From NCBI GenBank assembly GCA_039815375.1, contig JBCBZJ010000043.1, forward strand, positions 1 through 16,189: 16,189 nt of DNA, read 5' to 3'. A program made the position numbers and the translations under genes. Below the pieces are notes generated by a model, which made no database searches, had not been told where the DNA came from, and saw only the letters and a program-made list of their open reading frames with translations. This DNA is from Verrucomicrobiota bacterium (GTDB taxonomy: Bacteria > Verrucomicrobiota > Verrucomicrobiia > Opitutales > Coraliomargaritaceae). Positions 28-16,189 of this stretch are shown one piece after another; positions within the stretch are counted from its first letter, which is position 1; each line of letters begins with the position of its first letter.

Positions 28-408
28 ATGGACGTTGATGGCGTTTACTACTCGCTCGTTGATGTAGGCAGTTCTGCTACAAATATGGGCGATTTAGGTT
101 CTATTCCACTTAAACTTATTCGCGGTAAAGATCACATCCATGTTGACTCGCCTAAGACAACAGTGAAAGCGGGCGACTATGTTCCTGTTACATTTGAAGT
201 ACTGGCGAATAATACCGGTATCGATAGTGAATATAGCTTCGAGCTTGATATTCCAGATGGTTTAGCGCTTCACGAAGATAACGTACTTATCTCGAGCTCA
301 TCAGATATTAATGTTGAAGTTGCTGATGGCAAATTAACTCTAACTGGTACACAGCTTGATACTAGTGATATCGCACCAGATTATATCGTGACAAATAGCA
401 TCACTGAC
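28..408 (+). other. Probable chimeric fragment: internal piece of a large secreted protein resembling the C-terminal region of marine gammaproteobacterial S8 serine peptidases
   Basis: Open frame with no real start (VDVGSSATNMGDLGSIPLKLIRG...KAGDYVPVTFEVLANNTG...IPDGL...DYIVTNSITD). It is more AT-rich than the operon, directly follows the adapter and collides with the 3' end of the minus-strand gene. The family resemblance is from memory, not a search. Confidence 0.5.
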
Positions 409-3267
409 GTCCATTCCATCAACGGATATTAAGATCTGCTGTGTAAGGCCAAAGGCGTTAAGATTTTTGCGACGGTATAAATTGAACTCTACTGTATGCG
501 AGATTTCAGAGCCATTGAGCATTTGCATCTCATAGATGGAGTTCATACGATTTTCGCGAAAATCACCTCCTGCCGCGAATTGTGAGAGGTCATCCACTCC
601 ATTTCCATCCATATCTTCGTCAGGGAGCCCCGGTAGATAGTCAGTCGCATCAGTACTGGCTGAGAAGACCAGATAAGCAAGCTGCTCTGCCCCGTGACTT
701 CGATCACTATTACGAATAATGTCTTCGTCAACAGCCGTTAGTAATCCCTGGTCCGTTAAGTAATTGTCACCGTAAAGTAATGCCCAAGAGCCATCTCGAT
801 TATCCAAGCCTGCTTGTGTTAGGATTACACCGGTGGCATTCTCTACTCCAGTAATCGGATAATCGTAGGGAGGCGAATTATGCATGCCTTCGACAGTTCT
901 ACCCCCAAGCTGAGCAGTATAATGGATCGAACCAGGCAATGTTCCGCTGCCAGCCTCGATAACGACGTAGCCCAAAGTTTCGTCGGCTCGGGCCTGGTTG
1001 GTATCCCCTGCAACGGCTTTTCCCGTCCTAAGTACAGTCGAGGAAGGAGAATCACCACGATTGCTACCTCGTGTCCAAAAATACGAGAAATTCGGATCAT
1101 TGTAAGTCATCACTTGGCCCAATACGACTGGCGTAGTGTATTTGTTGTTGTAAAAACCATCATCCCCGTCCCAGTCATTCCTTCTAAAATAGGTTGAGGT
1201 CGAAAGATACTTTTTGGCTTCCATCTTGATCCCGTGTATGTCCGAAAAATATGTTCCTTCATCGACCACAAAATATTCAAGATCAATCGTACTTACCGGT
1301 TCGTTACTATCGTTTACCGGCTGAGCCAGAATCTCAAAGCTGTTACCGCTGGCATTCCGGATACGAGGAACCATAGGAGGATTGCTACTGGAATAAATAG
1401 GCGTCGCAATTACAACCATATCATTGTAGTTATTTGCCAGTGACACTGTTCTCCAGTTTTGATTGTCAACCTCAGTGACTTTGCCACGCTCCCAAATAAG
1501 CGCTTCGGGAACCTTGATCACATTTAAGGTCAGCGTGCCAACACTGGAAACTTCAAAACCGTCGTCGACGGTGTAAGTAATTGTATCGAGCCCTTCGAAA
1601 CCAGGGTCTGGAGTATAAGTGAATTGCTCGCCAGTCTGGGTCAGAGTGCCGTTCGCTGGTTGTGTGACGATCGTGTATTTGAGATAATCATAGTCTAAAT
1701 CAAAACCTTCGATATCGATGTTGCTCGTTTCATCTTGGAGCACAGTCACAACAGCATCACGAGCCTCAGGTGTCGCATTAACTCGTTTCAGATATCCGAG
1801 TTCCGTGACTGTCTTATAGGCAAGGTACAGAACATACTCCTGTTCTTCAGTCCAACCGTTGTAATGTTCGAGAGGATTTCGGTTTGTCATTACCGTATAT
1901 ATCATCCCAGCCAGCATAGTTTCGCCAAGGGTTGTCAGATGAACATCATAAACTCGCGGCACCAGAATCAATTCAGGTCTTTGCTCCCAGGCACGACCAA
2001 AACCGAGGTAATTGGGTGTCCCCCGGCAATCGACATCGGAATGGGCTGAGGTCGAAACGAATCCCATTTGTGTGCGGATACCAGCGAGGGTTCTTTCCTC
2101 CGAAGAAACCTCACTGCCTCTATCTGTCGTATAGTGCCTTTGTGAAAAAACGAATCTTGTGTCACTCCCTTCATCTGGGTCGAAACCATGTAAGGTGTTC
2201 ATATGAGAGGAGAAGTTGAGGCTGCCATAGGGTCGGCCAAACAAAAAGTCATAGTTACTATCTGTGATCAAAGTCTGGATCGCGTCGACTTCGAGGTTAT
2301 CTGGGAAATACCGGTAGTCGGTATTCCCGTCATCATACTCGTAGCCATCGATGTGAATCCCGAGATCACCATACCCGGTATTTTTCATGATCTTTCTTAG
2401 CTGCCTGGTTGTTCCCTTTTCGGTGCTCGTTCCCATAGAAGCCCAGTTTCTCATATCTGCGAGCAAAAGCGGAACCTCAAAGGGTGTGCAAAAGCTACTG
2501 GTAAATTCGCCCGTGTAGTGAGTCGCAGTCTGAGCTTCATCCCAATTGGAGTAAGCATAATCAATAATCTGAGTCGTTTGCTCTGCCGTGATATCCTCAT
2601 GCGTATAGGTGCTGTTATGCGCATCTTGCTCGAAAAGATGAGTGTAAACCGAAACAGCCATAACATATTCGACCCATTTATTGGGCGACTGGACCGATGA
2701 GGCTGTAGCCGATATTAAAGTATCATTAACAACATCTTCCATCACCAAACCAGCCGGAACGCAGTCGAGTGCCAATGCATCCGTTACCCGGTAAGAAACT
2801 TCTTCGACATAGCTAAGGGATGACGAGAAGGTGCCCGAATCCCAAATCATGGGAACAATGATTTTACTATCACGCTTTGCCGTGTAAGCCTTTATGAGGC
2901 GCACGGTTTCCATGAATAAAGCTGGTTTCCTCTCTATATCGTCTTCTCTTGGAATCAAAATGATGTAGTCACCACTGGCATCAATCGCGTCCAGCATGGG
3001 ATTTTTATCAGCGGCGACAACCCGATCATCGTAGTAGGCCTGAAGGATGTCGTCATCGTCAAAATGAGAGAACTGCAAATTCAGCGAACTCACGTTAGTA
3101 TCTGATTCATAGATACTTTGGAACGTAGCTTGAAACTCAGCCGCCCCGGAACCTAGAAATAAAATTTTACTATCAGCTGGGACAACAGCCCACAAAGGGC
3201 TAGTGAGAAGAAGGCCAGATATTAAACTAATAAATGGCCGAATCTTAAAGAGGATTGGCATTTTCAT
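340..3267 (-). CDS. Large secreted multidomain protein: signal peptide, two SGNH-hydrolase-like modules, Big_9/cadherin-like (tandem-95) domain, three lectin-like beta repeats, C-terminal DxDGNG...YRR...S-D tail. True 3' end probably lost at about 409.
   Basis: 975-aa ORF with an N-terminal hydrophobic signal ending PLWA. NATPEARD...YTIVTQPANGTL...FTYTPDPGFEGLDTITYTVDDG (about 1518-1779) is a typical Big_9-like repeat. Three units end in (E/L)-x-Y-x-V (about 665-1497). The last ~23 codons read through the foreign fragment. Confidence 0.8.
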   Translation of the reverse strand: MKMPILFKIRPFISLISGLLLTSPLWAVVPADSKILFLGSGAAEFQATFQSIYESDTNVSSLNLQFSHFDDDDILQAYYDDRVVAADKNPMLDAIDASGDYIILIPREDDIERKPALFMETVRLIKAYTAKRDSKIIVPMIWDSGTFSSSLSYVEEVSYRVTDALALDCVPAGLVMEDVVNDTLISATASSVQSPNKWVEYVMAVSVYTHLFEQDAHNSTYTHEDITAEQTTQIIDYAYSNWDEAQTATHYTGEFTSSFCTPFEVPLLLADMRNWASMGTSTEKGTTRQLRKIMKNTGYGDLGIHIDGYEYDDGNTDYRYFPDNLEVDAIQTLITDSNYDFLFGRPYGSLNFSSHMNTLHGFDPDEGSDTRFVFSQRHYTTDRGSEVSSEERTLAGIRTQMGFVSTSAHSDVDCRGTPNYLGFGRAWEQRPELILVPRVYDVHLTTLGETMLAGMIYTVMTNRNPLEHYNGWTEEQEYVLYLAYKTVTELGYLKRVNATPEARDAVVTVLQDETSNIDIEGFDLDYDYLKYTIVTQPANGTLTQTGEQFTYTPDPGFEGLDTITYTVDDGFEVSSVGTLTLNVIKVPEALIWERGKVTEVDNQNWRTVSLANNYNDMVVIATPIYSSSNPPMVPRIRNASGNSFEILAQPVNDSNEPVSTIDLEYFVVDEGTYFSDIHGIKMEAKKYLSTSTYFRRNDWDGDDGFYNNKYTTPVVLGQVMTYNDPNFSYFWTRGSNRGDSPSSTVLRTGKAVAGDTNQARADETLGYVVIEAGSGTLPGSIHYTAQLGGRTVEGMHNSPPYDYPITGVENATGVILTQAGLDNRDGSWALLYGDNYLTDQGLLTAVDEDIIRNSDRSHGAEQLAYLVFSASTDATDYLPGLPDEDMDGNGVDDLSQFAAGGDFRENRMNSIYEMQMLNGSEISHTVEFNLYRRKNLNAFGLTQQILISVDGMDVSDAICHDIIWCDITSIKLCTS

Positions 3268-3479: not shown

Positions 3480-4419
3480 GCCTCTTCACGGATTTCGGAC
3501 ACAGGTTGTCTGAAGTCTTCTTTCTTAGCTGCTTCTCTGGCTTGGATCTGAGGCTGCAGGGATTTGGCTGATCGAGGTTATTCAGAGGGTTGAGCAGGTG
3601 CTGGCTGTCGTTTTGCTGTCTGGTTTTCGACATCAATACACCAAAACTATGACAACCAGTATCGTTTACCATACTCAGGGCATCCGTGGATTCCACTATG
3701 AAAAGACCGTTCGCAAGGATCAGACTGAGTATTATCACATCATCTGCACTGCAACCAAGGCGGTTTGCCCCTGCTGTAAGTCCAAGCAGGCAAAATTCGT
3801 TGAGACTGTGCAGCAACGCTTCATCCGAGAGCTGCCTGCCGGCTTAAAAAACGGTTTTCATTGTGCAGATCAAGCGAGTGCGCTGCGAGAGTTGTCACGG
3901 TTTCGCCCGTGAGCGTTTGAGCTTTTGCCCGGCTCCGAACGTGGCTTACACCAAATGGTTGGTGAAGTATGTCCTGGCTCTGAGGCGTGAGATGTCGATC
4001 GCTGCTGTAGCCAAGTTCACCGGTCTACACTGGGAGAGTGTCAAGGAGATCGAGAAGCGTTATCTGGCTAAAAAATACGCCAAAGTCAGCCTGGGTTCGT
4101 TGTGCAGGTTCGGCATCGACGAGGTATATCTCGGTCGTAAGTTCGGCTTCATCACCGTGGTGCGACAAAGCGGAAGCCTCTGCGATCCATTGCCTAAAGC
4201 AAATGGCTAAAATCATATGCAAGCGTATCGAAGGACTCCTCGCCTTCTGGAAACATGACCGTCTCACCAGTGCCAGCCAGGAGCGCTGTAACAACAAAAT
4301 AGGATGGCTCACCAGACAGGCTTATGGATACAGAGATGAAGAGTTCCTAAACCTTAAAATCTACGATCTGCCGAACCTATCTACGCGGAAAGAACTGTGA
4401 CCGAAATCCGTGATGAACT
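3480..4419 (+). mobile_element. Degenerate ISL3-family insertion sequence (about 940 bp)
   Basis: Imperfect terminal inverted repeats: left GCCTCTTCACGGATTTCGGACACAG (3480-3504), right on the reverse strand AGTTCATCACGGATTTCGGTCACAG (4419-4395). They enclose ISL3 transposase fragments. No target-site duplication is visible. Confidence 0.88.
3649..4400 (+). pseudogene. ISL3 transposase pseudogene in three pieces
   Basis: Zinc finger CPCC...RVRCESC, HTH region (MSIAAVAKFTGLHWESVKEIEK), first catalytic motif GIDE, and C-terminal E-x-x-NNKI...RQAYGYRDEEFLNLKI. There is a frameshift at the A6 run 3846-3851 and a large internal deletion at about 4158-4166. Confidence 0.9.
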
Positions 4420-4606: not shown

Positions 4607-5050
4607 TTAGCGTTCCTGCACCTGCGGGATGATCTTACTGGTAAGTGTCAGCTTACCGGAATTGACGCCCTTGCAGGTCAGCATGCGGTCGGTGATTTTT
4701 CTCAGGCGGCGGACGCGGCCCTGGACTAGAACGACCTCCATCACGTTGTCGCCTTCGAGGAGAACGTGCTGACTGCTGATGCACTCGTCAATATGCTCTC
4801 GCTCGATCCGCGCCAGTTTCTCCAGAAGGCCCGCCTTTGACGAGTCGTAGAATAAGGTAATTGTTCCGGCCATTAAGGTCTCGTCGTTTTCCTGCTGATA
4901 CTCGACAAGCTGCTGCTCGATCATTTCAGCGATTGCTTGCGAACGGTTATGAAAACCTCGTCTTTGAATCATCTCGTCCAGCCCCTCGGCCAAACGACGC
5001 GGTAGGGAGACGCTGATGCGGTGCGCTGTATTATTTTTATCCACCTTCAT
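4607..5050 (-). CDS. nikR: NikR-family ribbon-helix-helix transcriptional regulator with a degenerate Ni-binding site
   Basis: N-terminal RHH (RISVSLP...[21 protein letters not shown]) plus NikR C-terminal ACT-like domain (GTITLFYD...SQHVLL...MEVVLVQG...KGV..GKL). ATG at 5050 is preferred over the upstream TTG at 5095, which falls in the operator region. Confidence 0.88.
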
Positions 5051-5076
5051 ACGATTTCGGTCTACTGCATCAAATC

Positions 5077-5104
5077 GTAATACTTCCGGCAACAAATTTA
5101 TTAC
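5077..5104. promoter_or_regulatory. Putative operator of the NikR-like regulator: GTAATA-N16-TATTAC
   Basis: Perfect 6-bp inverted repeat with a 16-bp spacer, the same geometry as the E. coli NikR operator GTATGA-N16-TCATAC. It lies between the nikR-like start and the sigma54 promoter. Confidence 0.75.
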
Positions 5105-5125
5105 TTTTAATTCCTGAAAAATTGA

Positions 5126-5142
5126 TTGGCACGCTTAATGCA
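5126..5142 (+). promoter_or_regulatory. Sigma54 (RpoN) -24/-12 promoter
   Basis: TTGGCACGCTTAATGCA matches TGGCAC-N5-TTGCW with one mismatch and exact GG(5128-5129)/GC(5140-5141) spacing. Predicted +1 is near 5153, upstream of a nitrogen-assimilation operon. Confidence 0.82.
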
Positions 5143-5214
5143 AGATTGTTCAGGCTTTCGGACGCTGTCGCGGACAGAGCCTCTCGAACAATACTACTCA
5201 ACAAAATAACGACT

Positions 5215-6216
<1,002 letters not shown>

Positions 6217-6253
6217 AAAGCCAGTCTTTCTCAGACTTTCTAGTTTGCTTGTC

Positions 6254-6288
6254 GAAGGCGGGCCATAGGCCTGGCTCGCCTTCTTTTT
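6254..6288 (+). terminator. Intrinsic terminator-like hairpin between the binding-protein and permease genes
   Basis: GAAGGCGGGCCA-taggcc-TGGCTCGCCTTC (12-bp stem, one G-U pair) followed by TTTTT. Confidence 0.75.
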
Positions 6289-6337
6289 GCCTCGAAACAA
6301 GGACTGCCTTTCAAAATCCGCGATATAAACAAGCAGC

Positions 6338-7723
6338 ATGACTAAGAACAAAAAGCCCAAGGCGCAGAGGCATCCTTGGTTTGCGGTCCGGAAGGACCTT
6401 GATGCAAAACGTCGCCTCTTGCTCTCTGTATTTTCCTTCATCATGCCTTTGGCTATCTGGTGCCTGGTGAGCTACACGCCGTTTATCTGGCATCCGGATA
6501 TTAAACTGCAAATCTCTGCCGACAGAAGTGATGTAACAACCGTGTTCACTGCGGGTGACCATCTGAGCAAGACCTATTTCCCGACCTTTGTTGAGGCGAT
6601 CCAGAAAGATAATAACTTGGTTTTGGCGGCTCGTGAAGCTGGCGAGCTGGGTAACGGAGGCTCTCGTGCACGCCGTGCCAACGTTAAGATCATACGGCAA
6701 ATCTCATCGCCTGCTATTGCGAATGGTTGGTTAACTAAAGAAGAGGCAGAGGAAGATGAAGCACTCTACATGATTTGGAAAGGTGTTGCTGAAGGCAGCC
6801 TCGAAGGGAAAAAGGTAAAATTCAGCGAAGAGAACGTTGCGATAGCTCAGCGTAACTGGGCTTTGATGTCGGCCAAGAGCCCAACTTACGATTCCAAGCT
6901 GATGCCGGACCAGCCTCTCCAAAAACTTGTGCCACAGGGACGCTTGGCAAATCCAGTTTATCTGCCCGCGCCGCACGAAGTTGTGGTCAAGGGTCTAGAA
7001 GATTTCACCTTCACCTCCGATGGCGACAAGCCCTCGATGTTTGAACGCTATAAGCATTCGTTGAAAATCGTCTTCATGGGTTTCCTCATGGCGGCACTGG
7101 TTGGCGTTCCTCTAGGCGTGCTCTGTGGCACCTTCGATTTCTTCTCCAAGCTCTTCGAACCATTTATCGACTTTTTCCGTTATATGCCGGCACCCGCCTT
7201 CAGTACTTTGCTGGTCGCAATTTTCGCAGCGCATGACGCGCCAAAGATCGCTTTGGTCTTTGTCGGCACTTTCTTTCAGCTCGTGTTGGTTGTTTCGAAC
7301 ACAACGCGCCAATTGGAGACTTCCCTCCTCGAGGCTGCTCAAACGCTCGGTGCAAAAAACATGACGCTGATTCGCCGCGTTATCATTCCTGGTATCACAC
7401 CGAATCTCTTCAATGACCTACGCATTCTACTCGGCTGGGCTTGGACCTGGCTTGTTATTGCCGAGCTCATCGGGGTGAAAAGCGGTCTGACTGAGTTCCT
7501 CGAAACGCAAGGTCGCTGGCGCAACTTCGATAGTGTGTTCCCTATCATTATCCTGATTGGTGTGACTGGTTTCACGACCGACCAGTTCCTTGCATCGTTG
7601 CGTAAATATCTTTTCCCATGGACACCGGAAGCTTCCGAGAAGAAGCACGGTATCTTTGGACGCTTCGCCTTCTGGCTCCTCGACCGGAAAGTTTATGAAT
7701 CACCTGTCAATGGAAAGGTATAA
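6338..7723 (+). CDS. ABC transporter permease (SsuC/TauC-like) with a large extracytoplasmic insertion
   Basis: [29 protein letters not shown] loop ([10 protein letters not shown]) and [14 protein letters not shown] motifs. A hydrophilic segment of about 150 aa follows the first transmembrane helix. Confidence 0.92.
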
Positions 7724-7725
7724 GT

Positions 7726-8625
7726 ATGAGCGAAGTAATCGAATTACCCAGTTATAAGGAACAGAGTGACGAAGTTCGTGCTCGTTTTACCGAAATCTAC
7801 AAACGTCCGATTAAGCTCGAAGTGAAGGGGGTGAGCAAGAGCTTCACCACGGCGAAGGGCACGGTCGATGTGCTCAGTCCGATCAACTTTAATGTCCATC
7901 GCCGTGAGTTCATCTCGGTTATCGGACCATCGGGCTGTGGAAAGTCCACTCTGATTCGTATGCTTGCGGGTCTCGAAACCACTTCCGGCGGCACTTTCCT
8001 GCTCGATGGCGAAGAAGCCAGTGGTCCGGGCGCGGATCGCGGAATGGTTTTTCAGGGTTACACACTGTTCCCGTGGCTAACGGTTAAAAAGAATGTCATG
8101 TTTGGTCTTGAGGTGAATGGGCGCTCCGGGTCGGCGGTCGAGCAGGAGGCCTTGCAGTGGATTGATCTGGTTGGTCTCTCACATGCGGTCGAGAAATACC
8201 CGAGTCAGCTTTCGGGCGGGATGAAACAGCGCGTGGCTATTGCTCGCTCGCTCGCCAATCAACCGCAGATTCTCTTCATGGATGAGCCTTTCGGTGCGCT
8301 CGATCCGCATACGCGTTGTCAAATGCAGGCACATTTACTGCAGATCTGGAAGAATGTTGATGTAACGATTATGTTTGTAACACATGATCTTGATGAAGCG
8401 ATTTATCTGTCCGACCGAATCCTGGTTCTGAAGGCAAATCCTGGAGAGATTCATGAATTCCTCGAAGTGCCTGTTCCGCGTCCGCGTTCAGATGATCAGT
8501 TGCTCAGTCCAGAGTTTCTTGCAACGAAGCAGCGACTTGAGGAGTTGATTCACCCCAAGAACCATGCGGAAGAGCACCAACTACCCATGGTTCGAATGAC
8601 GAGCACAAGTGACGAAGTTGAGTAG
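7726..8625 (+). CDS. ABC transporter ATP-binding protein (SsuB/TauB-like)
   Basis: Walker [11 protein letters not shown]-loop VFQ, signature LSGGMKQR, Walker [12 protein letters not shown]-loop VTHD. Confidence 0.96.
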
Positions 8626-8627
8626 AT

Positions 8628-9404
8628 ATGCCTGATATCGCACACAGCCAATGGTCGGTCATGACATGGCCGGAAATTCTTGAGGCGATTCGGGGTGGTT
8701 GTGATGCCGTGATGCTGCCGCTTGGAGCTACGGAACAACATGGGCCGCATCTCGGCACGGGCATGGACAGCGTTCTTGCCGAGAAACTCTGTAAAGAGGT
8801 CGGCAAGAAAACGCGCGTGCCTGTCCTGCCGACACTGAGCTATGGATGCTCGATAGGGCATTCACACCGCTGGCCCGGGACGCTTGCATTGAGTCCGAGC
8901 ACCATGATTGCAGTCCTTTGCGATATCGGCGACTGGCTTTATAAGGCAGGTATTCGTCGCTTGTTCTTCGTGAACTGTCATATCGGTAACATCGCTCCGA
9001 TTCGCTGCGCGCTCGATACCTTACGTTGCCGCTATGACGACCTGATGATTGCGTCCTTCAACGATGGAGACATGACACCGGTGATCAAAGCAGCCTTCGA
9101 GACGGATGGTGCCGACTGGCATGCGAATGCTGCAGAAACCAGTCTGATGATGGCGACTGCTCCAGATCTGGTTCGGCCTGATAAAATCGAGGATGCGGAC
9201 GATCCGGACCGCACCGGGGACTGTGTCTTCGCGCACCCAGTCAACCGCACCAGTACCAACGGTGTGACGGGACGCCCAAGCGAAGCATCAGAGTTTGCAG
9301 GTGAGCGCCTCTTTGAGCATCTTGTCTCGGCGCTATGTATTCGAGTTGAGGCTGGTCTTGAAGAAGAGCCACCGTTGAGAAATTCCTATTTTGAACGTAT
9401 CTGA
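8628..9404 (+). CDS. Creatininase-family amidohydrolase (substrate unknown)
   Basis: [33 protein letters not shown] and HANAAETS motifs. The binuclear metal ligands of the creatininase fold (E, H, D, H, E) appear intact. Confidence 0.92.
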
Positions 9405-9416
9405 AATTTGAATACA

Positions 9417-10835
9417 ATGAGGGAATTCTACGAAAAATACAAAACTGCTGCCGGTAATCTCTATACTGAAGAGAGATGGACGGATGAACAGGTCGCCGCA
9501 ATTCAGGCTGATCTTGAGAGTGCAGGGGTGAAGTATTGTGTAGGTAACTATGTGGACATTCATGGAGTGCCTAAAGGTAAGGTGGTGCCGCTGAGCCACT
9601 TCCCTGAATTTGCGCGAGGTTCCGAGCTTTATACGGGCTATGCGCTCGACGGTCTTGGACAGCGTCCGAATGATGACGAAATTGCTTCGAACCCAGACCT
9701 TGGCCTAATTATCCCGCTGCCTTGGAATCCCAGCGTAGCATGGATTCCTGCCGACAATACACTTCATGGGGAGCCCTACGAAGTGAATACCCGGGTGGTC
9801 CTGCAGAAGGTTTTAGAACAGGCGTATACGATGGGTTTCGGCATGAACCTGGGCATCGAGTGTGAGGTTTTCGTCGTTCGCTACACCGAAGACGGCCGAC
9901 TTGAAATACCCAATAGTGACGATAATTTGGAGAAAAGTTGCTATGACTTTAAGCGTTTCATGGATCGTTTCGACTGGCTTGATAAGATGGCGACGGCGAT
10001 CGATGAGCTTGGTTGGGAGCTTTACTCCTTCGATCACGAAGATGCCAATTCACAGTTCGAATTCGATTTCAAATACGCAGACGCCCTTACCATGTGCGAT
10101 CGCTTTACCTTCTTCCGTTACATGGCCAAGCACTATGCTTCGGAGGAAGGCCTGATTGCGACCTTCATGCCAAAGCCTTTTGCTGACAAAACCGGTAGCG
10201 GCGCGCACTTTAACATGTCGCTCTACGACAAGGAGACCGGCGAAAATCTCTTTAAGTGCAACAAGTCAGAGGACTCGCGTGGCTTAGGCTTGAGTGAGCT
10301 GGGCTATCAGTTCAGTGCAGGTATTCTCAAGCACGGTCCTGCACTTTGTGCGGCCTTTGCACCCACCGTGAACAGCTATAAGCGGCTCGTGCGCCGGGGC
10401 CTGATGAGCTACTATTCCTGGGCACCTGTTTTTAACTCCTACGGCAGTAATAACCGCACGAATTCCCTCCGTGTGCCAATGGCAGGTTGCCGAGTCGAGT
10501 CGCGCAATGCTGACGCTTCCTGCAACCCTTACCTTGCTGCTGCTCTCGCACTTGCAGCAGGTCTCGAAGGCATCAAAGAGGAACTTAATCCTGGCGACCC
10601 GCAGGAAGATAATCTCTACGAACTCAGTCCGGCCGAGCTCGCCGAGCGCGGTATTTCCGAACTCCCGCGTTCCCTTGATGAAGCGGTCGAGGCATTTGCC
10701 GCCGATCCATTTATCGAGCAAGTGCTCGGCGAGGAGTTACGAAAGGAATTTATCACTTATAAATCCGAAGAATGGCGGCAATTCCATCAGCGCATCAGCC
10801 AGTGGGAGGTCGATCAATACGCACGTCTTTTCTAA
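9417..10835 (+). CDS. glnT: Type III glutamate-ammonia ligase-like protein (GlnT/GmaS-like gamma-glutamyl-amine ligase)
   Basis: [61 protein letters not shown] and RVESR..D...NPYL. ATG 9417 or TTG 9408 are both possible starts. Confidence 0.85.
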
Positions 10836-10858
10836 ATTTCTGCAACAGTATCCATACA

Positions 10859-11611
10859 ATGAATGAAACTATACCCAACCCGCCGCTCGGTTCGAGTGAG
10901 CCCATCTATGAAACGTCGCTACGTGGTGCATCCATGTGGTCGAAGGTCATTGGACGGGGCAAAACTCTCCGAATGACTGACCTCGAAGGTAAAGGAAATG
11001 TGGGCATGCTGCTTTACAATGCCCATGAGCGCTCTGAGCGATATAACATGCCTGATACCCTTAAAGGGCAGCACATTTTCTACCTCCGGTCGCCATACTG
11101 TCTCCACTCCGATATGGGTCGACTCTTCTGCTCGATTACGGGTGACACCCTCGGCTGGCATGATGCGGTTTGCGGTTGCTCTGATGCTGCGCTTGTTGAA
11201 AAAAAGTATGGCATCAGGACCTTTCAGGAGGCCCGCAACGACTATCATCGCGATGGGCAGAATTCGTTCTTGATTGAACTTGCGAAGTGGGGGCTTGGGA
11301 AGCGTGACCTCATGCCCAATATCAACTGGTTCAGCAAAGTTGTCACAGATGAAGAGGGTAAGCTCAGCTACGTTGCCGAAGAGTCGAAACCCGGCGATAC
11401 TGTCGATTTACGTTTTGAAATGGATGCGCTTGTGGTGCTCAACACCTGCCAGCATCCGCTCGATCCGAGTCCTGAATATGACCCGGGCCGAGTGAAACTT
11501 GAAGTATTCAAGAGTGAACCTGCCGGTGAAGACGATCCGTGCCGCAATTCGCGGCCAGAAAACCAACGTGCATTCAACAATACTGAAGATTACAACGCGC
11601 TCCGATTCTGA
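10859..11611 (+). CDS. cgdA: DUF1989 urea-carboxylase-associated protein (UAAP1), carboxyguanidine deiminase subunit A
   Basis: [34 protein letters not shown] and TCQHPLDP motifs. First of a DUF1989 pair ahead of uca. ATG 10859 follows the glnT stop. Confidence 0.9.
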
Positions 11612-11628
11612 CTTTAACTTCTTATACT

Positions 11629-12264
11629 ATGTTTACCGAAAGCACATTGAAACCAGAAGACGCGGTTTACCGCAAAACAGTTCTCGCAGGCGATTACTGG
11701 ATCCACGAAATCAAGAAGGGGCAGACCTTTCGTATCGTGGACGTTGAAGGCAACCAGGCAGCCGATACAATCTTCTATGACGCACAGGATCCGGAAAATC
11801 GATATAGCGCTTCAGATACAGTCCGTCGTCAGGGTGCGCTTTACCTGACGACTGGCTCCGATCTAGTTTCCACGGCTGGCGACGTGCTGATGAGAATCAC
11901 TGCTGATACCTGTGGTCGCCACGACACGCTCGGTGGTGCTTGCTCGCGAGAGAGCAACACCATGCGTTACTCTCCACGAACTGAATATATGCACGCTTGC
12001 CGTGATAGCTTTATCAGAGGCTTGCAGGACTGGGGGCCGAATCTAACTACGCGCGACCTGCCATGTAACATTAACTTCTTCATGAATGTTCCTGTCACCC
12101 CGGAAGGAAAGCTCACTTTCGAGGATGGTATCTCTTCTGCAGGGCTTTATATTGAGATGGTTGCCGAGCGCGACGTAATGTGCCTCATTTCAAACTGCCC
12201 CCAACTGAACAACCCCTGTAACGCTTACAATCCCACTCCTATCGAGACGATTATCTGGGATTAA
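11629..12264 (+). CDS. cgdB: DUF1989 urea-carboxylase-associated protein (UAAP2), carboxyguanidine deiminase subunit B
   Basis: [33 protein letters not shown] and [17 protein letters not shown] motifs. Confidence 0.92.
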
Positions 12265-12276
12265 AGGGTAAATCTG

Positions 12277-12349
12277 TCCGCGGATTAAGCCGATTCACGC
12301 CGATGTAATGTTTTTTGATTAATCTGCGTCGATCTGTGCAATCTATGGA
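12277..12349. repeat. Imperfect intergenic palindrome with 9-10 bp GAT/ATC periodicity (REP-like)
   Basis: Left arm TCCGCGGATTAAGCCGATTCACGCCGAT (12277-12304) versus the reverse complement of the right arm (12322-12349), TCCATAGATTGCACAGATCGACGCAGAT: 18/28 identical plus 4 G-U-compatible positions, around a T-rich loop. Confidence 0.6.
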
Positions 12350-12366
12350 TTAAAGATCCATTCTGT

Positions 12367-15300
12367 ATGTTTAAAAAAGTATTGATAGCGAATCGCGGTG
12401 AGATTGCCTGCCGCGTTATCCGCACACTTGATCAGCTGAGCGTCGCTTCTGTTGCAGTATATTCTGATGCAGACCGGGACGCGCCACATGTGTCGATGGC
12501 GACGGAAAGCTACCGTATCGGGCCGGCTGCGGTTAGCGAGAGCTACCTCCAAGCCGAGACGATTCTTGAAATTGCCAGATGCTCCGGCGCGGATGCGATT
12601 CATCCTGGCTACGGATTGCTCAGCGAGAACGCCGACTTCGCTAAAGCCTGCGAAGAAGCAGGCGTCACCTTCATTGGCCCGACTCCTGAAAGTATGCTTG
12701 CCTTTGGCCTGAAGCACCGTGCGCGAGCGCTTGCTTCCGAGAATGCAGTGCCGCTTGTTCCAGGAACGGATTTGCTCGTCGACGTCAAGGCTGCGCAAGA
12801 GGCGGCTGACGAAATCGCTTACCCGGTCATGCTCAAAAGCACGGCTGGCGGTGGTGGCATCGGAATGCAAATCTGTTATTCGGAAGCAGAGCTACTTGAT
12901 GCTTACGACCGTGTTGAGCGCTTGAGCCAAAGCCACTTTGGTCAGGGTGGTATCTTTCTGGAAAAGTTCGTTGTCCATGCGCGCCATCTGGAGGTCCAGG
13001 TCTTTGGCGATGGGCAGGGCCAGGTTCTTTCGCTTGGCGTTCGTGATTGCTCCACTCAGCGGCGAAACCAGAAAGTCATTGAAGAAACGCCACCTGCAAA
13101 TGTATCCGAAAATGTGATACAAGGTCTACAGGAAGCTGCGCTGCGACTTTGCGAGTCAGTTAAATACCGTTCTGTGGGCACGGTTGAGTTCATTTACGAT
13201 AATGACACGCAGGAATACTATTTTCTGGAGGTGAATACCCGCCTTCAGGTGGAGCATGGCGTGACTGAGTTGGTCACGAATGTTGACCTCGTCAGTTGGA
13301 TGGTGCAGCTCGCTGCCGGAGATATGACGATTTCGGCTGATCCAAAAATTGTCCCGCAGCATGGGCATGCGATTCAGTCGCGACTCTATGCCGAGAACCC
13401 GCGTAAAGATTTCCAGCCCTCGAGCGGTTTGCTGACTCAGGTGAGTTTCCCCGAAGGTGTGCGTTGCGACCATTGGGTGAACTCCGGCACTGAAGTCAGC
13501 CCTTACTACGACCCGCTACTTGGAAAGCTGCAGGTCTATGCCGAGACGCGTGAAGGTGCCGTTGCAGCGATGTATGGAGCTCTGACAAAAACGCGTCTGG
13601 AAGGCATTGAAACGAATCTCGACTACCTGCGCACGGTCGTTCTTTCGGAGGTATTTCGCTCCGGTAATATGATGACGAAGAGCCTGTCGGAACACGATTA
13701 CCAGCCGAAGACTTTTGAAGTGCTGCGCTCCGGCACGATAACCACGGTGCAGGACTATCCCGGTCGAGTCGGTTATTGGGAAGTCGGCGTGCCTCCGTCC
13801 GGCCCGATGGACTCTCTGGCCTTTCGTTTGGGTAATCGACTGCTTGCGAACCCGCAGGATGCAGCGGGTCTTGAAATCACCGCGACCGGACCGAAGCTTG
13901 AATTCCACACCACTGTTACTGCGATCCTCACCGGTGCCGAAATGGACACGACGCTCGACGGAGAGCCAGTTGATTTCTACCGTCCTTTTGAAATTGAGGC
14001 AGGTGCCACGCTCGACATCGGCAAGTTAACGGGGCTAGGTGTGCGTAGTTACCTGCTGATACGAGGAGGGATCGATGTCCCGCTCTATTTGGGTAGCCGT
14101 TCAACTTTTACCCTCGGTCAGTTCGGCGGGCACGGAGGACGTGGTCTGCGCCTTGGGGACATTCTCCATGTTGGTGGTTCCGAGCCAGCCCAACCGTCGG
14201 CTCCAGACTATGCGGCATCCTCAGAAGGCACTCTATTTGCTAGCGATCTTTTCGACCTTCCAAAGGACCAGCAGCCCGAGTTAACTCACACGTGGGACAT
14301 TGCGGTTCTCTATGGGCCGCATGGTGCGCCGGACTTTTTCAAGCCGTCCGATATCGAGATGTTCTTCGAGACGGAGTGGGAGGTGCATTACAATTCGGCC
14401 CCGACGGGTGTCCGCCTTATCGGTCCAAAGCCGGAATGGGCGCGTCCCGATGGTGGAGAGGCTGGCCTGCATCCGTCCAATATTCACGATAATGCCTATG
14501 CGATTGGGGCCATTGATTTTACTGGAGACATGCCGGTGATTCTTGGTCCCGATGGGCCGAGTCTGGGCGGTTTTGTTTGTCCTGCCACGATTATTCAGAG
14601 TGAGCTCTGGAAAATGGGGCAACTCAAGCCGGGGGATAAGGTGCGGTTCCGCTGCGTTTCCCGTGAACAGGCGGAGAGCCTTCGGGGCCGTCAGGAGGAG
14701 AGTATCGCCACTCTCAAAGCAGACTTCGAGGTGCCGAGTGATGTGCGCCTTCCGGAGCCGGACGAAATGATTCTCGTCGATGAAGGGGAGGGTGACGCGC
14801 GACTTGTCATCCGTCAGGCCGGGGATGCTTATGTGCTCGCTGAGATCGGTCCAATGGCGCTCGACTTTAAACTGCGCTTCCACGTGCACGTTCTGTATCA
14901 GGCTTTGAAGGAGCAAAGTTTTGAGCCGGTCGAAGACTTGACGCCCGGCATTCGCTCGCTGCAGGTGCATTTTGACTCGAGGAAGGTTAGTGCGGAGTCG
15001 GTGGCTGTATGGATTCAGCTAGTGAATCAGCAGTTGCCGCCGCTGGAAGATATCACGGTGCCTTCACGCATCGTGCACTTGCCGCTTTCCTGGGACGACC
15101 CCTCGACACAGCTTGCAACCGAGAAATACATGCAGTCGGTTCGTCCTGATGCGCCATGGTGTCCGGACAATATCGAATTTATCCGACGAATTAATGGTCT
15201 CGAAAGACGCGCAGACGTTTACGATATCGTCTTCAATGCGAGCTACGTTGTGCTGGGTCTTGGGGATGTTTATCTTGGTGCCCCTGTTGCGACTCCGCTG

Positions 15301-16017
15301 GACCCGCGTCACCGCCTCGTCACGACGAAGTATAATCCGGCCCGAACATGGACGCCGGAAAATGCTGTTGGTATTGGTGGTGCCTACATGTGTATTTATG
15401 GCATGGAGGGCCCGGGAGGTTATCAGTTTGTGGGGCGCACGATCCAGATGTGGAATCGCTACAATGAAACCGAATCTTTTGAATCCGGTAAGCCTTGGCT
15501 ACTGCGTTTCTTCGACCAGATTCGCTACTATCCGGTAAAGGCAGAGGAGCTTGAAGCACTTCGCCACGACTTCCCACAGGGTCGCTACAATCCGAAGATC
15601 GAGGAAACCTCATTCAGTCTAGAAGAGTATGAGCAGTTTCTCTTTGAGAACATTGATTCGATTCAAGCTTTTAAGCAGCGGCAGCAGTCTTCCTTCGATG
15701 CCGAGCGTCAGCGTTGGGAAGAAGCCGGGCTAGCAACCTACGTCGAGGAAGAGGGCGGTGCGGTGACCGAAGGCGCTGAAGTGCTTCCTGATGATGTTGA
15801 GCCTGTCGAAAGCCCCGTTGCGGGAAGCGTCTGGAAGATTGTGCAGGGTGAGGAGGGTAGCTCGGTCGAAGCGGGTAATACGCTGGCCGTATTGGAATCA
15901 ATGAAGATGGAAATCAAGGTGGAGGCACCTATATCCGGCATGTTGCATCGTTGCCTTTGTAAGGAGGGCCAGGCGATTTCGCCCGGGCAGATTCTGTTTG
16001 GAATTAAAGAAAGTTAA
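12367..16017 (+). CDS. uca: Urea carboxylase family enzyme, guanidine carboxylase type
   Basis: Biotin carboxylase ([33 protein letters not shown]), carboxyltransferase domains ([52 protein letters not shown]) and biotin carrier ESMKME (Lys codon 15904-15906). 1216 aa. Confidence 0.96.
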
Positions 16018-16024
16018 TCTGCAA

Positions 16025-16189
16025 ATGACACAGATGAGCGTAAATTTATCGATTGAGAGTTTAAAGAAAGCCTACGGCGAGGGGACATGCGCTCCGCGTC
16101 AGTTGATTGCTGAACTGCTTGAGCGTATCGACTCAGTCGATAATCCTGATGTTTGGATTTATCGCCTGAGTGTGGAAGAGCTGGAGCCA
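16025..16189 (+). CDS. atzF: Allophanate hydrolase, N-terminal 55 codons (runs off the window)
   Basis: Open frame MTQMSVNLSIESLKKAYGEGTCAPRQLIAELLERIDSVDNPDVWIYRLSVEELEP starting 7 nt after the uca stop. It resembles AtzF/amidase N-termini and sits in the expected position. Catalytic motifs lie outside the window. Confidence 0.78.
   Translation, partial: MTQMSVNLSIESLKKAYGEGTCAPRQLIAELLERIDSVDNPDVWIYRLSVEELEP

Follow-up and report, generated by a model that had tools for sequence, protein, structure and literature searches.

A putative guanidine carboxylase operon with a NikR-like regulator, two additional enzymes and no recognisable riboswitch in a Verrucomicrobiota bacterium

The window analysed here, a stretch of 16,189 nucleotides from a Verrucomicrobiota bacterium (GenBank assembly GCA_039815375.1, contig JBCBZJ010000043.1), contains a guanidine carboxylase gene cluster in which no riboswitch was recognised. 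A divergent gene beside it encodes a NikR-like protein with an altered nickel site, and two further enzymes, a glutamine synthetase (GS)-like ligase and a creatininase-fold hydrolase, are embedded between the importer and carboxylase genes. Our favoured explanation, to which we give a probability of about 0.5 as a whole, is a nitrogen-scavenging operon governed by a NikR-derived sensor and carrying a glutamylating add-on. The window is the whole of contig C1 of a 3.56 Mb genome that is 99.9% complete, and the closest relatives of its proteins come from Opitutales and Coraliomargarita-like Verrucomicrobiota.

Family scans bore out the gene order and identities given in a preliminary description of this DNA, including the divergent nikR-like gene (4607–5050, minus strand). 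It is followed on the plus strand by genes for an ABC substrate-binding protein (SBP) of the NMT1/SsuA fold (5215–6216, assigned from family scans and homologue loci), a 461-residue permease with a long N-terminal region (6338–7723), an ATPase (7726–8625), a creatininase-family protein (8628–9404), the TIGR03105 ligase GlnT (9408–10835), CgdA (10859–11611), CgdB (11629–12264), the carboxylase Uca (12367–16017) and the 5' end of the allophanate hydrolase gene atzF (16025–16189). The gaps from SBP to atzF measure 121, 2, 2, 9 (3 if the ligase starts at TTG 9408 instead of ATG 9414), 23, 17, 102 and 7 nt; six of the eight are thus shorter than 25 nt, in keeping with the earlier claim, and from gene spacing only we infer co-transcription. 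Although the contig ends within atzF, the final 126 nt of the window match the end of contig C26 exactly, where the frame scores 666 bits on TIGR02713, and all ten genes are intact once this continuation is counted.

The core genes very probably encode guanidine-type nitrogen scavenging. Comparisons were drawn from a cassette set, the best 80 of 283 loci found with the ligase as query; from an even draw of 301 Verrucomicrobiae genomes, which are mutually related and in many cases incomplete; and, outside the phylum, from a plasmid collection in which 10 loci were picked from the top matches. Uca scores 1811 bits on TIGR02712 and, by alignment, has Asp at the position of Asn1330 in Kluyveromyces lactis urea carboxylase, as do all 41 cassette carboxylases in which the motif is covered; this residue is a mark of guanidine carboxylases according to the available part of PMC12186494. 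CgdA (UAAP1, DUF1989; 332 bits, cut-off 206), CgdB (UAAP2, DUF1989; 313 bits, cut-off 285) and allophanate hydrolase lie in the same cluster, all above curated cut-offs, so that the guanidine-type pathway first proposed for this DNA is confirmed in its gene content. The core genes and the Asp-type carboxylase are shared with the Gca operons of Raoultella, Klebsiella and Vreelandella, as far as these are set out in the available text of PMC12186494 and PMC12508155, and the window's importer is related to their riboswitch-led importers. Unlike those operons, the window has no Guanidine-I or Guanidine-II riboswitch and has a NikR-type operator and two extra enzymes. In one related locus (L021, 4222–4528), the uca gene of genome G010 aligns as two pieces about 300 nt apart, owing to an insertion or an assembly error.

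A cmscan search of the window against 4227 Rfam families (E<=10) returned two weak, unrelated matches, the presence of the Guanidine-IV model in this Rfam copy being unchecked. Guanidine-I was found nowhere in the window's genome, and ACGR hairpins were present in neither the leader nor the cgdB-uca spacer of the window; the predicted leader is about 62 nt long, as against the 107 positions of the Guanidine-I model. None of 21 related cassette loci gave an Rfam riboswitch at the gathering score, Guanidine-I was found in none of 50 Verrucomicrobial genomes drawn from the 80 loci (at most 61 candidates scored per genome), and paired ACGR hairpins in none of 50 cgdB-uca spacers, both Guanidine-II controls being detected. 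The earlier statement that no riboswitch is recognisable, together with its proposed check for a guanidine riboswitch in the leader, therefore holds for the window, its genome and the 21 cassette loci; control by such a riboswitch, which is common for the pathway and not one of its defining features, was not found in the window. Given this absence across the cassette loci and the 50 genomes, lack of the riboswitch may be a trait of the lineage.

The divergent gene encodes a ribbon-helix-helix plus ACT protein with the NikR fold (NF003381, 114 bits, cut-off 105), and it is the sole NikR-family gene that tblastn found in the genome. Its start is most likely ATG 5050, which gives 147 residues as in the closest homologues; a TTG start at 5095 was set aside. 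The four positions that we take to be the high-affinity nickel ligands of NikR, His/His/His/Cys, read R/H/L/V in our alignments, leaving one ligand of the four, so that the NikR appears repurposed, as had been suggested, with its nickel site lost and its fold kept. Fifty-four cassette regulators were compared with 14 control NikRs, drawn from some 60 matches of lower score in the same class; none of the controls lies beside cgd genes. All 14 controls have HHHC; Cys at the C95 position occurs in none of the 54 cassette regulators, 29 of which share with the window protein an Arg at the H76 position, while 18 keep HHHY, and two acids, E99 and E105, are conserved in the family. The ribbon-helix-helix and ACT fold and the R-S-S DNA-reading strand are shared with the NikR proteins of Escherichia coli (1q5v), Pyrococcus horikoshii (2bj1) and Helicobacter pylori, and the candidate operator, like those of NikR, has two half-sites spaced by about two helical turns. 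Unlike NikR, the window regulator has three of its four nickel ligands replaced and adjoins guanidine genes, not nickel uptake genes.

The regulator is tied to the guanidine pathway and not to the extra enzymes. Among the 301 genomes, cgdB occurs in 28, all but one of which (27) carry the altered regulator: in 25 it scores at least 153 bits, a cut set after the score gap was seen, and in two it adjoins cgdA. All 25 genomes with a high-scoring regulator carry cgdB. At 5 Verrucomicrobial and 6 proteobacterial loci the regulator stands beside cgdAB-uca without the extra enzymes; the preliminary description is corrected on this point.

Between nikR and the importer lies a candidate operator, GTAATAC-N14-TTATTAC (5077–5104), to which the regulator putatively binds; it precedes the nikR ATG by 27–54 nt and the sigma-54 TGG by 50 bp. 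As GTAATA-N16-TATTAC it has no other perfect match in the 3.56 Mb genome, and the consensus refines to GTAWTAC-N14-GTAWTAC. The sigma-54 (-24/-12) promoter occupies 5126–5142 on the plus strand (GG at 5128–5129, GC at 5140–5141), its box TTGGCACGCTTAATGCA starting at 5126; the genome contains rpoN and three sigma-54 activators, the best NtrC score being 487 against a cut-off of 559. Both elements are conserved across eight aligned intergenic regions (one row, L021, being shifted). Among the 62 loci with enough flank, an operator with at most two mismatches precedes the importer in 38, as compared to 0.009 expected per 360 bp, and a loose sigma-54 pattern does so in 58, conservation that upholds the palindrome and promoter of the preliminary description. 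Thirty further operator sites occur in the remaining 1.17 Mb of the loci, many directly before glnT, nikR or cgdA. Other near-matches in the window's genome, on contigs C2 and C12, were rejected as regulon sites since they lie inside coding regions. Where nikR is divergent (15 loci), the operator precedes the -24 box by some 50 bp; at loci without a divergent nikR it closely follows the sigma-54 box, which is a repressor position. Repression via the operator is judged likely.

Outside the phylum, the regulator and its operator stand beside ABC-cgdAB-uca-atzF in two Novosphingobium loci, one Sphingobium and one Asticcacaulis, without riboswitch and without the extra pair, and four Burkholderiales loci have Guanidine-I and neither regulator nor operator. 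In three of those four, the SBP homologue is 54% identical to that of the window and stands behind its own Guanidine-I; the closest non-Verrucomicrobial SBP homologues thus directly follow this riboswitch in 3/3 loci. In both Acinetobacter loci, operator, sigma-54 box and Guanidine-I are stacked before cgdA, and further operators precede nikR-atzF and the permease gene. The regulator is therefore tied to guanidine-controlled genes yet able to coexist with the riboswitch. The earlier proposal that a protein regulator replaces the riboswitch stands as far as the window has the regulator and operator and no riboswitch; the regulator is not a strict substitute, because both sit on the Acinetobacter cgdA promoter.

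We propose that a NikR-derived protein would bind GTAWTAC-N14-GTAWTAC, repress both the operon and its own gene, and leave the operator upon binding guanidine or an intermediate of the pathway, thereby taking on the function that Guanidine-I riboswitches have elsewhere. That the ligand is guanidine or an intermediate seems somewhat favoured. A regulator that instead senses a metal, for the operon's metal enzymes, or a general nitrogen signal is a possibility of roughly one in three: HHHY persists in 18 of the 54 cassette regulators, E99 and E105 are conserved, the genome encodes a nickel urease and this one NikR only, and at the Acinetobacter promoter, where a guanidine riboswitch is already present, the protein could add a second signal. 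Such a role sits poorly with the Arg at H76 in the window protein and 29 of the 54 cassette regulators, with the lack of Cys in all 54, and with regulator sites found only at guanidine-pathway genes.

The creatininase-fold hydrolase and the GS-like ligase form an optional module that, in this class, is never seen without the carboxylase pathway. The hydrolase gene lies beside the ligase gene in 75 of the 80 loci and in all 40 with full flanks, the other five being short or cut upstream. A close ligase (at least 66% identity) occurs in 21 of the 301 genomes, all of which also have cgdB, in line with the co-conservation with cgdAB-uca that the preliminary description set as a check; the same sample holds five cgdB operons without the pair, one with a paralogous version and one that is fragmented.

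GlnT scores 616 bits on TIGR03105 (cut-off 470) and 299 bits on TIGR00653, the GS type I model (cut-off 429). Residues are numbered as in RhGmaS, moved by hand from the 7cql alignment, with roles as given in the available part of PMC7948447. Like GmaS (RhGmaS 7cql; 9qur), the ligase has K30, Y147, D177, E179, E186, W300 and R312, of which D177, E186 and R312 are catalytic, and neither enzyme has the ammonia-GS residues: in the ligase, Thr stands at Asp53 and Trp at the flap Glu304 (Bacillus subtilis numbering). Unlike GmaS, it carries three pocket changes (A48T, Q175S and N188D), falls in a separate clade and is never beside mgsABC. S175 and D188 occur in 81/81 sequences of this clade (clade A) and 8/8 paralogues, as against Gln and Asn in 7/7 mgs-linked GmaS, and a quick tree, midpoint-rooted, whose 59 rows cover roughly a quarter of the close sequences, splits the clades at SH-aLRT 100. 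The resulting pocket, predicted to be roomier and to gain an acid, would be suited to a larger cation, for example guanidinium. The hydrolase shares with creatininase (Pseudomonas putida 1j2t) and its family (MftE, ArfB, IolN) the fold and an E/H/D/H/H/E core that is invariant in 74/74 homologues. It is not creatininase proper: it reaches 127 bits on TIGR04448, against a creatininase cut-off of 235, and Y121 and E122 of creatininase are replaced.

The mechanism that we favour for the operon is as follows. The ABC system would import guanidine or a close derivative under sigma-54 control, and Gca, CgdAB and AtzF, assigned here by sequence to established chemistry, would convert guanidine to carboxyguanidine, allophanate and finally ammonia and CO2. 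With ATP, the ligase would join a guanidino nitrogen to the gamma-carboxyl of glutamate, and the hydrolase would then cleave the acyl-guanidine either at the amidine carbon, giving glutamine and urea, or at the acyl bond, returning guanidine to Gca. A known relative of the hydrolase cleaves a cyclic acyl-guanidine, and the genome has a urease. In larger loci the glutamylated compound would be the substrate of a Rieske oxygenase, on the model of aniline dioxygenase. This sequence, first glutamylation at a guanidino nitrogen and then hydrolysis, is our leading proposal for the pair, although we hold it tentatively, at somewhat under even odds.

Several points weigh against this explanation. Guanidinium is a poor nucleophile; all 21 genomes with a clade-A ligase already have cgdB, so that a parallel route would be redundant; and if only the acyl bond were hydrolysed, the cycle would be futile. 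As to the regulator, 24 of the 62 loci, among them some with nikR, lack an operator ahead of the importer. The same motif occurs in 3 of the 14 canonical-NikR control loci and the R-S-S strand is shared, so the operator would reflect inherited NikR specificity and says nothing about the ligand. The window operator, lying upstream of the -24 box, may mainly autoregulate nikR; an NtrC-like enhancer was not found (2 of 58 loci, 2 in controls); and members with HHHY may keep a metal role. The genomes being related, all counts overstate independence.

Less likely, though a serious alternative, is that the pair acts upstream and that its substrate is a guanidine bearing a substituent or acyl group (formyl-, carbamoyl- or cyclic acyl-guanidine); the hydrolase would supply Gca with free guanidine and the ligase would capture or carry the other amine. 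Creatininase-fold enzymes cleave amides, and genes for a Rieske oxygenase (30 loci), a TIM-barrel protein (32) or a PuuE-like deacetylase (18) are added in 34 of the 80 loci; FGE-domain (30), GFA formaldehyde-activating (18) and SDR (15) proteins are repeatedly present too, as is a second ligase paralogue (8). The best-scoring model for the Rieske genes is that of glycine betaine N-demethylase, whose cut-off they do not reach. Cultured environmental carriers include Thalassobacterium sedimentorum and T. maritimum, with the minimal cassette, and Haloferula sargassicola and Luteolibacter marinus, with the extended one. The window's genome, by tblastn, has no homologue of these Rieske, TIM-barrel, GFA or deacetylase genes and yet keeps the pair, which must therefore be useful without the oxygenase; a glutamyl-amine would have no evident fate downstream; and Guanidine-I, which controls the nearest importers outside the phylum, discriminated against methylguanidine in Vreelandella boliviensis (PMC12508155, available part). 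Of the earlier suggestion that the extra genes signal a substituted or cyclic guanidine, methylguanidine and creatinine fit poorly, while a substituted guanidine in general may still apply because of the genes added in those 34 loci.

Known add-on systems offer partial parallels. In aniline and 1-naphthylamine dioxygenases (AtdA1-5, NpaA1-5), as described in the part of PMC11335346 available, a GS-like ligase, a hydrolase and a Rieske oxygenase work together, the amine being glutamylated before oxidation. The extended loci match this logic, which by analogy supports a glutamyl-carrier role and substituted guanidines there; unlike those systems, they have a different hydrolase fold and ligase clade, and the window has no oxygenase. 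The V. boliviensis Gca operon likewise has a two-enzyme add-on, MgdH/MgdL; according to the available text of PMC12508155 it is an oxidative demethylase and a lyase for methylguanidine, whereas that of the window is an ATP-dependent ligase and a hydrolase, unrelated in sequence. This oxidative route, to the extent that the source sets it out, was found neither in the window nor in the 80 loci. The TIM-barrel gene of the extended loci was rejected as MgdL, sharing no visible motif with the MgdL alignment (PMC12508155, supplement 3, the part available). A TIM-barrel 'xylose isomerase' 46–48% identical to it occurs on a Paraburkholderia sprentiae plasmid (L240, 9041–10980), beside a 2-oxoglutarate (2OG) oxygenase gene; it lies ahead of riboswitch-led cgdAB and represents a guanidine-linked family of uncharacterised enzymes.

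It is improbable that GlnT is a second, locally induced glutamine synthetase trapping released ammonia, with the hydrolase as a repair or side activity: GlnT is the sole GS type I gene in the genome, and RhGmaS takes NH4Cl at a high Km (PMC7948447, available part), yet Trp and Thr replace GS Glu304 and Asp53, a GS type II housekeeping enzyme is encoded on contig C2, and the fixed link to the hydrolase and the duplicated paralogue are left unexplained. Least probable is that methylguanidine or creatinine yields methylamine, salvaged by GlnT as gamma-glutamylmethylamide: although the best solved relatives are the methylamine ligases 9qur and 7cql and creatininase, the ligase pocket and clade differ from GmaS, the hydrolase falls short of the creatininase cut-off, mgsABC occurs in 0 of 80 loci, and the genome, without N-methylglutamate genes, has neither a stand-alone MgsC nor a sarcosine-oxidase-type alpha domain, so the creatinine-like substrate proposed earlier is not supported.

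In a plasmid tblastn the hydrolase found only matches of at most 36% identity, one top plasmid ligase match that was examined is an mgs-linked GmaS, a viral scan gave no matches, and the few organism names from outside the phylum in related searches were one Deltaproteobacteria metagenome-assembled genome, one Pseudomonadota and one Actinomycetota. Two candidates were rejected as members of the module. The metagenome-scan query P0125, which served only as a control, is a true GmaS: mgsA is its neighbour in 44 of 80 loci, and no creatininase accompanies it. The 49–51% identical ligases of L140–L146, from seven small genomes, have a different pocket and no hydrolase, cgd genes or operator nearby; these GmaS-related proteins have Gln at the catalytic Asp177 position, one matches a Methylacidimicrobium-named protein, and the neighbours scanned at L141 include no mgs genes. 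The second ligase paralogue (44–48% identical; L039, L041, L043, L044, L048, L051, L091 and L158) has Gly in place of the glutamate-binding Arg288 in 8/8 cases, so that it may use another acyl donor or be a non-catalytic subunit. Elsewhere in the window's genome (L024, G000:C62:232400-233200) lies a further, unrelated creatininase-family gene (33% identity). The record of L040 bears the title Yoonia sp., probably through mislabelling: its cassette is a typical Opitutales one, and the genomes that neighbour it in class are Verrucomicrobial.

Further observations concern the regulator outside the phylum and the surroundings of the operon. On a plasmid of Acinetobacter sp. NCu2D-2 (L136, 15305–17531), operator, permease and ATPase are followed by genes for a 2OG-Fe(II) oxygenase, a hypothetical protein in which D-x-R and Y-V-E-x-W motifs seen in MgdL were noted by eye, and an SMR transporter of the Qac/EmrE type; together they are probably a module for methylguanidine controlled by the NikR-like regulator. 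The Acinetobacter baumannii mum operon was set aside as a different, LysR-controlled locus (PMC5050338, available part). Novosphingobium resinovorum has two NikR-like copies, and in sphingomonads genes for a TonB-dependent receptor and for a sterol-desaturase-family protein have extra operators nearby and may also belong to the regulon (these observations concern L134, 9520–15971, and L135, 20412–20521). Within the window, the 121-nt gap between SBP and permease holds a terminator-like stem-loop with a U-run (6254–6290, plus strand, z -2.6), which probably sets SBP stoichiometry. Just beyond nikR, an ISL3-family transposase gene (3598–4400, NF033550 match) is broken across several frames, and 340–3267 on the minus strand encodes a secreted-looking protein of 975 residues with an Ig/cadherin-like tandem-95 domain, the rest of which mostly has no family match.

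The core pathway is already known, and what is new here is the operator consensus, controlled against canonical NikRs, together with the pocket signature of the ligase and the stacking of operator and riboswitch in Acinetobacter. None of the titles and abstract openings covered describes the regulator or the pair; the primary CgdAB studies (Nelson 2017, Schneider 2020, Sinn 2021) lay outside this coverage and may mention these genes. The available parts of reviews describe guanidine sensing in bacteria by riboswitches only, guanidine genes having been found via riboswitches. It is an outside chance, of the order of one in four, that both the NikR paralogue is a protein guanidine sensor, descended from a nickel sensor and acting in two or more phyla instead of or atop riboswitches, and the pair is an ATP-dependent gamma-glutamyl-guanidine route delivering nitrogen straight to glutamine. 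If true, a protein sensor with a definable operator would offer a second handle on guanidine regulons in lineages without a detected riboswitch and would be a clear case of a metal sensor switching ligand. The pair and its Rieske-containing versions point toward undescribed natural guanidino compounds or an undescribed route, which bears on the source of environmental guanidine.

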